From Patescibacteria group bacterium (lineage in GTDB: Bacteria; Patescibacteriota; Patescibacteriia; UBA9934; GWF2-40-263): a stretch of DNA of 64,000 nt. The notes under the pieces are model-generated. The model was given only the letters and a program-made list of their open reading frames with translations. It did not search any database and was not told the origin of the DNA. The stretch is taken from the NCBI GenBank assembly GCA_038065075.1, contig JBBTRQ010000001.1, forward strand, positions 2,823 to 66,822, given 5' to 3'. The position numbers and the translations under genes are program-made. This document shows, piece after piece, positions 20,319-38,411 of the stretch. Positions within the stretch are counted from its first letter, which is position 1. Every line of letters begins with the position of its first letter.

Positions 20319-20395
20319 TGGTGGGCGTGAGAGGGCTCGAACCTCTGACCTCTGTCGTGTGAGGACAGCGCTCTAACCAACTGAGCTACACGCCC
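20319..20395 (-). tRNA. tRNA-Val (anticodon CAC), CCA encoded
   Basis: Cloverleaf folded by eye from the reverse complement GGGCGTGTAGCTCAGTTGGTTAGAGCGCTGTCCTCACACGACAGAGGTCAGAGGTTCGAGCCCTCTCACGCCCACCA. Confidence 0.85.
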
Positions 20396-24128: not shown

Positions 24129-24205
24129 TGGTGGATGTTGGAGGACTCGAACCTCCGACCTCTGTCGTGTGAGGACAGCGCTCTAACCAGCTGAGCTAAA
24201 CATCC
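24129..24205 (-). tRNA. tRNA-Val (anticodon CAC), second copy with a different acceptor/T stem
   Basis: Reverse complement GGATGTTTAGCTCAGCTGGTTAGAGCGCTGTCCTCACACGACAGAGGTCGGAGGTTCGAGTCCTCCAACATCCACCA. Confidence 0.85.
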
Positions 24206-37677: not shown

Positions 37678-37764
37678 GCCGCGGTGGCGGAATTGGTAGA
37701 CGCGCAGGACTCAAAATCCTGTATGGGCAACCATGTGAGGGTTCGATTCCCTCCCGCGGCACCA
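37678..37764 (+). tRNA. tRNA-Leu (anticodon CAA), class II long variable arm
   Basis: GCCGCGGTGGCGGAATTGGTAGACGCGCAGGACTCAAAATCCTG..GAGGGTTCGATTCCCTCCCGCGGCACCA. Confidence 0.85.
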
Positions 37765-37901
37765 AGAAGCCTCAAAAAAGCGATCTGCTCGTGCTTCGGT
37801 CGGAAACTCGTTCGTCGTAGGATTACCTACGTCTCGCGAGCTTTCCTCCCTACAGCACATCGCATCTCATCTTTTTTGAATCTTCTTGTCAGGTACCAGA
37901 T

Positions 37902-37978
37902 GGCTGGGTAGCTCAGTTGGTTAGAGCGTGGGACTCATAAGCCCGAGGTCGTGGGTTCAACTCCCACCCCAGCTACCA
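37902..37978 (+). tRNA. tRNA-Met elongator type (anticodon CAT; could be a lysidine-modified tRNA-Ile2)
   Basis: GGCTGGGTAGCTCAGTTGGTTAGAGC...CTCATAA...GGTTCAACTCCCACCCCAGCTACCA; G1-C72 paired. Confidence 0.8.
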
Positions 37979-37980
37979 AC

Positions 37981-38015
37981 AAAAACACTCGTGAGTGATC
38001 ACGAGTGTTTTTGGT
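37981..38015. terminator. bidirectional intrinsic terminator shared by convergent tRNA-Met(+) and tRNA-fMet(-)
   Basis: aaaaa-CACTCGTG-agtgat-CACGAGTG-ttttt. Confidence 0.7.
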
Positions 38016-38351
38016 TGCGGGGACCGGATTTGAACCGGTGACCTCTTGGTTATGCTTACCACTACAGTTTTCACTGCCTCTGAATTTCATCAGAGTTTGT
38101 AGTCTGGACTTTCCCTTGTCCGTCTTCATTGTGAAGGACGGACCCTACCATCAAGTCTCTACACTTTCCTCTCTTATGTAAGAAAGGCTTAGCTCGGGAT
38201 TACCACCATAGGAGGCTTCCCCGAATTTGATAGGATTCATCCGACCGTTTCTGGTCGGACAGCCCATTGCGATATCAGATGCCATCTACGTTGGTTTCGT
38301 TGCATCCGATCGAATCGAGCCAAGCGAGCTGCCAGGCTGCTCTACCCCGCG
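38012..38351 (-). tRNA. initiator tRNA-fMet (CAT) interrupted in the anticodon loop (after U33) by a 263-nt intron; exons 38318-38351 (34 nt) and 38012-38054 (43 nt incl. CCA)
   Basis: Exons concatenate to CGCGGGGTAGAGCAGCCTGGCAGCTCGCTTGGCT|CATAACCAAGAGGTCACCGGTTCAAATCCGGTCCCCGCAACCA, near-identical to E. coli tRNA-fMet; C1:A72 mismatch and A11:U24 initiator identity elements. Confidence 0.75.
38055..38317 (-). ncRNA. group I-like self-splicing intron (no ORF) within tRNA-fMet
   Basis: 5' exon ends in U, intron ends in G; P/Q/R-like elements (AAATTCGGGGAAGCC, AATCCCGAGC, GTCCAGACTACAAAC); P9-like hairpin ACTACAAACTCTGATGAAATTCAGAGG..CTGTAGTGG. Confidence 0.6.
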
Positions 38352-38411
38352 AGCGCTAGGATAGAGGAGTTTGTCGGATGAGTCAAGAAAATGCTACACT
38401 TCTAGTACGTT

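Follow-up and report, generated by a model that had tools for sequence, protein, structure and literature searches.

How a bacterium obtains its initiator tRNA from a gene that is cut in two is the question raised by the locus described here. It is located on the minus strand of a 64,000-nt stretch of contig JBBTRQ010000001.1 (the whole stretch is called the window below), where the two parts of a tRNA-fMet gene are separated by 263 nt. According to the analysis, this is very probably the gene for the initiator tRNA-fMet in an Uhrbacteria-like bacterium of the Candidate Phyla Radiation (CPR), with a group I intron of 263 nt (subgroup IC3) inserted between U33 and C34, and the intron is very probably a derivative of a mobile element from which the open reading frame (ORF) was deleted. 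The element is of a known kind and is not mechanistically or categorically new; the novelty lies in the CPR host lineage.

A 340-nt pre-tRNA was delimited on the minus strand at 38351-38012, comprising a 77-nt initiator tRNA-fMet (CAU) and the 263-nt intron after U33. Its parts are the following:

38318-38351, minus strand: 5' exon of 34 nt, tRNA-fMet positions 1-33 (CGCGGGGTAGAGCAGCCTGGCAGCTCGCTTGGCT), with U33, the intron's U(-1), as its last nucleotide
38055-38317, minus strand: group I intron of 263 nt, subgroup-IC3 type, without ORF (Rfam RF00028, ARAGORN, comparative structure)
38055, minus strand: omega-G, the last intron nucleotide (G in 17 of 17 aligned introns)
38012-38054, minus strand: 3' exon of 43 nt, tRNA positions 34-76 (CATAACCAAGAGGTCACCGGTTCAAATCCGGTCCCCGCAACCA), with the CCA encoded

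The joined exons gave a 77-nt cloverleaf which was assigned to tRNA-Met(CAU) by ARAGORN. When introns were allowed, the same gene was detected in the unspliced DNA with the intron i(35,263), i.e. after the linear position 34 (= U33). An earlier reading made from the sequence only (the sequence-only reading) had proposed that the two ends concatenate into a 77-nt initiator tRNA with the break after U33; its coordinates were exact and ARAGORN agreed with them. The default ARAGORN run on the window missed the split gene.

The Rfam model RF00028 (Intron_gpI) matched positions 38281-38078 (minus strand) over its full length (1-253) with 56.1 bits (gathering score 50; E = 1.5e-11 when the whole window was searched), and this was the single group I match in the 64 kb. 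The group I assignment made from the sequence alone was thereby supported above the threshold. The intron starts after U33 and ends in G, which corresponds to insertion 33/34, U-1 and omega-G, and neither an ORF of at least 50 aa nor an intact endonuclease gene was found in the 263 nt; the earlier description of an ORF-less intron ending in G holds with omega-G at 38055. Judged by its sequence, the intron is a member of the classical tRNA-fMet 33/34 IC3 family ('fMet.2Ug'), all the sequence-level features of which were detected. The class fMet.2Ug (site 33/34, U-1, omega-G) is described by Williams (10.1101/2020.01.27.920355) as one of four classical bacterial tRNA intron classes, all of them IC3. 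The window intron itself was provisionally placed in IC3 solely via its alignment to introns labelled IC3 in PMC13011429. Its core could be aligned over the full length to the cyanobacterial members with 63-72 % identity. That tRNA-fMet introns are mainly cyanobacterial, as had been stated from the sequence alone, was correct insofar as the family was first known there; PMC13011429 treats tRNA-fMet 33/34 as a well-characterised site and reports such introns in Bacteroidota as well as in Cyanobacteriota.

The core structure was assessed in an alignment of 17 sequences: the window intron, nine further CPR introns, four cyanobacterial and two Bacteroidota tRNA-fMet introns, and a Bacillota_B tRNA-Ile2 intron classed IC3 in PMC13011429 Table S5, all with the insertion at 33/34. 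Pairing was scored on a hand-specified canonical topology (P2, P3, P4, P5, P6, P7 as a pseudoknot, P8, P9.0, P9 and P9.1). The elements in the window intron, in the order of transcription, are listed below.

38268-38316, minus strand: P1 extension hairpin (CGA/UCG and UCGGAUGC/GCAUCUGA); position of the endonuclease ORF in the relatives L017, L033 and L089 (centroid fold, ORF positions)
38261-38267, minus strand: internal guide sequence AUGGGCU (GGGC invariant in 17 of 17)
38239-38260, minus strand: P2 hairpin (GUCCGACC / GGUCGGAU, loop AGAAAC; 8 of 8 pairs compensatory)
38229-38234, minus strand: P3 5' strand CCUAUC, partner 38144-38149 (100 % of cells paired, two pairs compensatory)
38194-38224, minus strand: P4-P5 domain (UCGGGG..GCC / GGU..UCCCGA), classical P and Q (invariant, 99 % paired in the 17 sequences)
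38168-38187, minus strand: P6 hairpin (CCUUUC / GAGAGG; 5 of 6 pairs compensatory)
38154-38159, minus strand: P7 5' strand GAGACU with a bulged A, classical R, partner 38106-38110 (invariant, 100 % paired, pseudoknot with P3)
38144-38149, minus strand: P3 3' strand GGUAGG (comparative fold)
38118-38143, minus strand: P8, long hairpin (GUCCGUCCUU...GAAGACGGAC; three pairs with nine compensatory cells each)
38106-38110, minus strand: P7 3' strand AGUCC, classical S (comparative fold)
38058-38103, minus strand: P9.0 (ACUAC / GUGGU) around P9 and P9.1 (88 % paired, one compensatory pair)
38078-38095, minus strand: P9, CUCUGA/UCAGAG (6 of 6 pairs compensatory)
38064-38077, minus strand: P9.1, GCAGU-GAAA-ACUGU (4 of 5 pairs compensatory)

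With this topology 94.9 % of the cells contained standard pairs, compared with 31-43 % when the partners were slid. Compensatory changes were found in 29 of the 56 pairs, and the observed values were reached by 0 of 500 shuffles. The alignment contains 78 invariant columns; P4, P5 and P7 are invariant while P2, P3, P6, P8, P9 and P9.1 covary. All the helices of the window intron are intact in the comparative fold, and no private substitution was detected at the columns in which 14 or more of the other 16 sequences are the same. The intron core recognized by the sequence-only reading is thus real, but two of its labels had to be changed: the 'R-like' element (GTCCAGAC...) is the P7 3' strand (classical S) with P9.0, and the supposed long P9-like hairpin (GUCCGUCCUUCACAAUGAAGACGGAC) is P8. 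An RNAalifold structure in which the guide was paired to the P7 3' strand and a GUG/ACU hairpin was formed was rejected as spurious; the P3/P7 pseudoknot is undrawable there and the exon was absent from the alignment.

The relatives of the locus were searched in one genome per GTDB species (185,579 representatives) using the 3' exon with its CCAAG stem as the query. The search resulted in 74 loci, almost all in metagenome-assembled genomes (MAGs) of CPR/Patescibacteria (Uhrbacteria, Moraniibacteriota, Saccharibacteria and others) and a few in alphaproteobacteria. Sixty-nine of these loci were uninterrupted and five had the omega-G before C34. A metagenome scan added eight loci with the omega-G before the 3' exon, and the whole split gene was delimited in six of them. 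The introns fall into size classes of 652-658 nt (L017, L033, L089), 738 nt (L016), 423 nt (L052 = L085) and 233-276 nt, the last comprising the window intron (263 nt), L049, L083, L088 and L082 = L087 (the L numbers are our handles for loci and their contigs). In L071, L011, L073 and L060 the tRNA-fMet gene is uninterrupted and has the same neighbourhood; the intron-less CPR site reads GCTCGCTTGGCT directly followed by CATAACCAAGAGG.

The introns of L017, L033 and L089, inserted at the same site, contain a 149-aa ORF which starts about 25 nt into the intron. Its product matched PF11645 (E = 1e-49) and PDB 2OST, which is I-Ssp6803I (E = 2e-60), and was 59-63 % identical to the latter. I-Ssp6803I is the PD-(D/E)XK homing endonuclease of the 655-nt tRNA-fMet intron of Synechocystis PCC 6803, where it is encoded by a 150-aa ORF (PMC1995217, PMC3384342). 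In L052 and L085 only the residues 1-19 and 100-149 of the endonuclease are left. In L017, L033 and L089, the last approximately 16 codons of the ORF are at the same time ribozyme sequence (3' strand of P1, guide, P2), and this is the stretch that survives after the ORF deletion. The corresponding part of the window intron is:

38237-38284, minus strand: in-frame remnant of the endonuclease ORF, last approximately 15 codons and stop (WHLISQWAVRPETVG*), overlapping the guide and P2 (translation and tblastn)

The remnant was 80 % identical to the residues 135-149 of the L017 endonuclease (E = 1.2e-6, tblastn against a small database). The intron would thus be derived from a mobile element with an I-Ssp6803I-type endonuclease in the P1 loop, the ORF of which was then deleted; the remaining 3' tail of the ORF would serve as the P1 3' strand and P2, and the intron would persist as a phenotypically neutral ribozyme. 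Since the endonuclease ORF was deleted, the window intron would no longer be self-homing. The relatives look like stages of a homing cycle, namely invasion, endonuclease decay, minimal ribozyme and loss, although the direction, i.e. the loss of the ORF, is what we infer from them. The mobility of the intron in this lineage, suggested already from the sequence alone, is supported by the relatives with the I-Ssp6803I-type endonuclease and from those without an intron.

The opposite direction, in which the ORF-less 263-nt form is ancestral in the lineage and the endonuclease ORF entered the P1 loop of the relatives later, is unlikely but is the alternative that survives best. It would fit the similar 33-nt 5' segment and the P1-extension stem (GAUGC/GCAUC) which the window shares with L049, L083 and L088, and the shared tail, being the guide and P2, could be conserved by RNA constraint alone. 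However, the tail in the window translates as WHLISQWAVRPETVG* in the frame of the full ORFs and has their stop codon, and its WHLI is conserved in I-Ssp6803I too. L052 and L085 contain a clearly internally deleted ORF, so deletion does occur within the clade. Moreover, the architecture with 655 nt and 150 aa is shared with Synechocystis (PMC1995217); therefore, the intron and the ORF most likely arrived as one unit. The ORF-less form as the ancestral state is accordingly rated as less likely than the loss of the ORF.

Among the CPR cores, three sub-lineages or more can be told apart, represented by the window, by L016/L082 and by L089. The cores of L016/L082 and L089 are 65-68 % identical to that of the window, which makes them as distant from it as the cyanobacterial cores (63-72 %). 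The L089 endonuclease was 65 % identical to those of L017 and L033, being no closer to them than I-Ssp6803I is (59-63 %). By these identities, either several entries into CPR or an old presence there is hinted at. As a separate observation, the 738-nt intron of L016 (tRNA-fMet at c[7137,7949]), which belongs to a different fMet intron sub-lineage, contains a 152-aa ORF antisense to the tRNA, for which neither Pfam nor PDB gave a relative. This could be a chance ORF, or it could encode an endonuclease of the intron that has not been described. L082 and L087 (233 nt) represent the ORF-less form of the L016 sub-lineage.

The predicted expression signals on the two sides of the gene are:

38358-38386, minus strand: putative sigma-70-like promoter TTGACT, 17 nt, TATCCT, with its end 7 nt before the first tRNA nucleotide (consensus scan)
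37981-38011, both strands: palindromic hairpin with flanking A and T runs, predicted bidirectional intrinsic terminator for tRNA-fMet (minus) and tRNA-Met (plus) (folding)

A TTGAC...TATCCTATCGCT motif precedes the gene also in L060 and L017. The folding energy of the hairpin was -23 to -24 kcal/mol with a z of about -6.2 on both strands; a consensus terminator scan did not pick it up. Going by its predicted fold, the hairpin may terminate both of the converging tRNA genes. The transcript would thus run from the gene's own sigma-70-like promoter to the shared hairpin terminator. In the centroid fold P1 is formed by the guide GGC(U) with the exon (G30)G31-C32-U33, including a U33-G wobble, and the guide AUGGGC is complementary to the ligated junction GCU-CAU (G31-C, C32-G, U33-G, C34-G, A35-U, U36-A). 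The guide AUG may, from this complementarity, form P10 with C34-A35-U36 of the 3' exon.

P7 is the guanosine-binding helix of group I introns. In the proposed mechanism, the guide AUGGGC would pair with the end of the 5' exon (G31-C, C32-G, U33-G wobble) to give P1, and an exogenous guanosine bound in P7 would attack after U33. The omega-G (38055) would then occupy the same P7 site while the guide AUG aligns the CAU of the 3' exon (P10), and exon ligation would produce the normal anticodon loop CUCAUAA. These steps are the established pathway of group I splicing. As far as the conservation of the sequence indicates, the intron is probably splicing-competent, and, provided that the gene is the sole copy, as presumed, it is plausible that the organism cannot make its initiator tRNA without splicing.

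It is highly unlikely that the interrupted gene is instead a decaying pseudogene with an inactive ribozyme and that the initiator is supplied by a second intact tRNA-fMet gene. Such a gene could lie outside the 64 kb of the genome that were seen, and one related MAG bin holds both an interrupted (L017) and an intact (L060) copy. Against this, no private change was present at the conserved core positions, the helices are intact, the promoter and the terminator are conserved, and the sequence is identical in four assemblies. The other four species representatives with the intron (L016, L033, L049 and L052) were scanned as well and no second tRNA-fMet of this type was detected in them, although the MAGs may be incomplete. 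In the bin concerned, binchicken_co368_97, the intron-less allele (L060) is on a 2.5-kb contig and has exons identical to those of the allele with intron and endonuclease (L017). The two are related strains binned together rather than two copies, as their flanks are 85-90 % identical and both have the same downstream gene start; L060 was therefore rejected as an intact second copy or allele beside L017.

The spliced tRNA was found by direct reading and in the ARAGORN cloverleaf to contain the C1xA72 mismatch, A11:U24 and the CAU anticodon, all of which had been named in the sequence-only reading. C1xA72 and A11:U24 are hallmarks of bacterial initiator tRNAs. The tRNA is identical to E. coli tRNA-fMet at 66 of 77 positions and has the same acceptor stem. 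In the anticodon stem CUUGG/CCAAG (38318-38325 / 38046-38054) the pair 29:41 is U:A, so two of the three canonical G:C pairs (29:41, 30:40, 31:39) are present. The 5' exon is identical in uninterrupted CPR tRNA-fMet genes (e.g. L060, L011, L038, L073), and both exons are identical to the uninterrupted tRNA-fMet genes of related CPR MAGs. The nearest other tRNA with the same anticodon is:

37902-37978, plus strand: elongator-type CAU tRNA (G1-U72, no C1xA72; ARAGORN, Rfam; same neighbourhood in the relatives)

The chance that the split tRNA is itself an elongator tRNA-Met or a lysidine-modified tRNA-Ile2, both of which share the CAU anticodon with the initiator, is considered very small. The presence of just two of the three initiator-specific G:C pairs would agree with it, as would the residence of the related Azoarcus and Bacillota_B introns in tRNA-Ile2 and the naming of some homologous fMet genes as 'Met' or 'Ile2' by tFind (PMC13011429 Table S5). 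These points are outweighed by C1xA72 together with A11:U24, by the acceptor stem shared with E. coli tRNA-fMet, by the separate elongator-type CAU tRNA only 34 nt away, and by the relatives, where the corresponding locus has no tRNA-fMet-like gene other than the one with the same exon sequence. Another structured RNA, for example transfer-messenger RNA (tmRNA), or an assembly chimera, is practically negligible as an explanation despite the tRNA-like 3' end with CCA and the lack of a default ARAGORN tRNA call, since ARAGORN reported no tmRNA, the Rfam tmRNA signal was only 17.9 bits against a threshold of 47 and came from the 3' end of the adjoining tRNA-Met on the other strand, the 340 nt are identical in four independent assemblies, and homologous split loci occur in 13 other contigs; the change from tmRNA to split tRNA made in the sequence-only reading was therefore justified by both ARAGORN and Rfam.

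Concerning the host, the locus of the window was found in four assemblies, including contig CAYHTY010000001.1 of MAG GCA_964359885.1, and the 340-nt pre-tRNA was identical in all four. The nucleotide identity of the window with the Ca. Uhrbacteria contigs L071, L011 and L073 and with the Patescibacteria contig L049 was 67-80 %, and the gene order was shared (RelA/SpoT, ParB, ParA, the tRNA cluster, a 154-aa gene, a glycosyltransferase, ScpB and others). L017 shares the gene order with the window too. Because of the nucleotide identity and the gene order, the host is taken to be an Uhrbacteria-like CPR bacterium and not a cyanobacterium.

Several points weigh against the overall interpretation of the locus. 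The Rfam score is just 6 bits over the threshold, with P1 and the 3' end of the intron outside the match, and the Intron_gpI model was, according to 10.1101/2020.01.27.920355, seeded without bacterial introns. Splicing competence is read from conservation only. Since the retained 'codons' are under constraint as part of the RNA structure too, the ORF may have been gained later rather than lost. The placement of the host is drawn from the similarity and gene order with MAG contigs, some of which are inconsistently labelled at NCBI (Gammaproteobacteria, Bdellovibrionales). A second, intact tRNA-fMet gene may be present elsewhere in the genome, the view being that of one 64-kb window. Finally, U29:A41 replaces the first of the three initiator G:C pairs, and the complete set of three is thus not found. 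The natural exceptions to the three-G:C rule described so far, in alphaproteobacteria and mycoplasmas, are A29:U41, in which the purine:pyrimidine order is kept (PMC5389676); U29:A41 is pyrimidine:purine, unlike these. The CUUGG/CCAAG stem is shared by the 69 uninterrupted tRNA-fMet genes, which come with few exceptions from a number of CPR lineages. It was initially considered a CPR-wide trait, which was withdrawn as only 74 of the 185,579 species representatives matched. In the library that was searched, no paper linking the three-G:C rule to Patescibacteria was found.

A wider reading is put forward tentatively, with somewhat less than even confidence. The mobile tRNA-fMet intron of the I-Ssp6803I type, until now seen as an essentially cyanobacterial element, would have crossed into CPR/Patescibacteria and would be cycling there through invasion, endonuclease decay and intron loss among close relatives. 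The endonuclease would presumably have been retargeted to the CUUGG/CCAAG stem, and the organism of the window, which has a minimal genome, would carry the ORF-less ribozyme in its sole initiator tRNA gene and could not initiate any translation without RNA self-splicing. The relatives of I-Ssp6803I were described as generally cyanobacterial (PMC3384342).

The closest known counterparts are the cyanobacterial tRNA-fMet introns (Synechocystis PCC 6803, 655 nt, with I-Ssp6803I; ORF-less in Gloeobacter and others), which share with the window intron the gene, the site 33/34, U-1, omega-G, the IC3 core (63-72 % identical) and the guide (A/U)UGGGC. The endonuclease of the window relatives is at the same place of the intron as in Synechocystis, and the intron and ORF lengths are almost the same (PMC1995217). 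In contrast to the cyanobacterial introns, the host of the window intron belongs to CPR, the homing site differs at 27-29 and 41-43 (CUUGG/CCAAG versus UCGGG/CCCGA), the window copy has no ORF, and a longer P8 distinguishes the window-type CPR clade (window, L017, L033, L049, L052, L083, L088). The Bacteroidota tRNA-fMet 33/34 IC3 introns (GCA_951812585.1, GCF_001988955.1; PMC13011429 Table S5) are of the same gene, site and family; they also lack an ORF, their cores are 67-68 % identical and their 3' end is nearly identical to that of the window (gcagtgaaaactgtagtggtgtg followed by CATAACC). Unlike the window intron, they are 303-305 nt long with a longer P1 insert and come from another phylum.

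The intron of the Azoarcus sp. BH72 pre-tRNA-Ile(CAU), compared on the basis of established knowledge and PMC13168695, is likewise a small IC3 intron in a CAU anticodon loop with P2-P9, a short P1 and GNRA-type loops. It differs in its position after the anticodon (36/37) of tRNA-Ile2 and has no P1 extension and no endonuclease history. The Patescibacteria tRNA introns covered in PMC13011429 share the phylum-level host and the anticodon loop with the window intron and mostly lack endonuclease genes; they are mostly IA introns at the site 35/36 of tRNA-Asn and tRNA-Asp, whereas the window intron is IC3, interrupts tRNA-fMet and is related to introns that encode an I-Ssp6803I-type endonuclease. 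Two Microgenomatia 'Met(CAU) 33/34' introns (PMC13011429) were considered as a prior report and rejected, as both the tRNA and the shorter intron are different.

The locus adds a CPR (Uhrbacteria-like) host to a classic family of mobile ribozymes, although an earlier automated detection in CPR MAGs by Williams 2020 is possible. In a survey of complete genomes, the tRNA introns of Patescibacteria were almost all IA, and horizontal transfer seemed limited as the majority of tRNA introns were without endonuclease genes (PMC13011429). In contrast, an IC3 intron is found here in CPR, with close relatives in which the endonuclease gene is full, half-deleted or absent. These form a compact natural series for the study of the homing cycle, along with endonucleases of a family that has presumably adapted to another target, and illustrate neatly how a mobile ribozyme occurs across phyla and how its endonuclease decays. 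Should no other copy of the gene exist, an organism with a very small genome would have its whole initiator tRNA supply hang on a ribozyme. Because the default tRNA finders miss the gene, false calls of a missing initiator tRNA would arise in the annotation of MAGs.

Some minor observations were made on the relatives and on the neighbourhood of the gene. L008, L015-L018, L020, L028 and others are TPA_asm MAGs titled 'uncultured Bdellovibrionales' or 'Gammaproteobacteria' with a tRNA-fMet identical to that of Moraniibacteriota/Uhrbacteria; the NCBI labels on such MAGs are probably wrong. Three viral contigs, L005 (2434-2473), L006 (5927-5966) and L007 (853-892), contain the 3' half of tRNA-fMet with a G in front of it and have no 5' exon and no tRNA call; they were set aside as probably att-like tRNA fragments. 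In the CAU tRNA at 37902-37978, the uppermost pair of the acceptor stem is the G1-U72 wobble, and the lowest position of the anticodon stem is a mismatch, A31xG39. This tRNA is 91-99 % conserved in the relatives and can be either Met or Ile2. When 37678-38351 was compared with L011, L033, L049, L060, L071 and L073, the tRNA-fMet gene was convergent, tandem or upstream relative to tRNA-Leu(CAA) and tRNA-Met; this small tRNA cluster is repeatedly rearranged among close relatives. Elsewhere in the window, two tRNA-Val(CAC) genes are located 3.8 kb apart on the minus strand at 20319-20395 and 24129-24205. Their acceptor and T stems differ, and small CPR genomes do not usually have an isoacceptor in duplicate.

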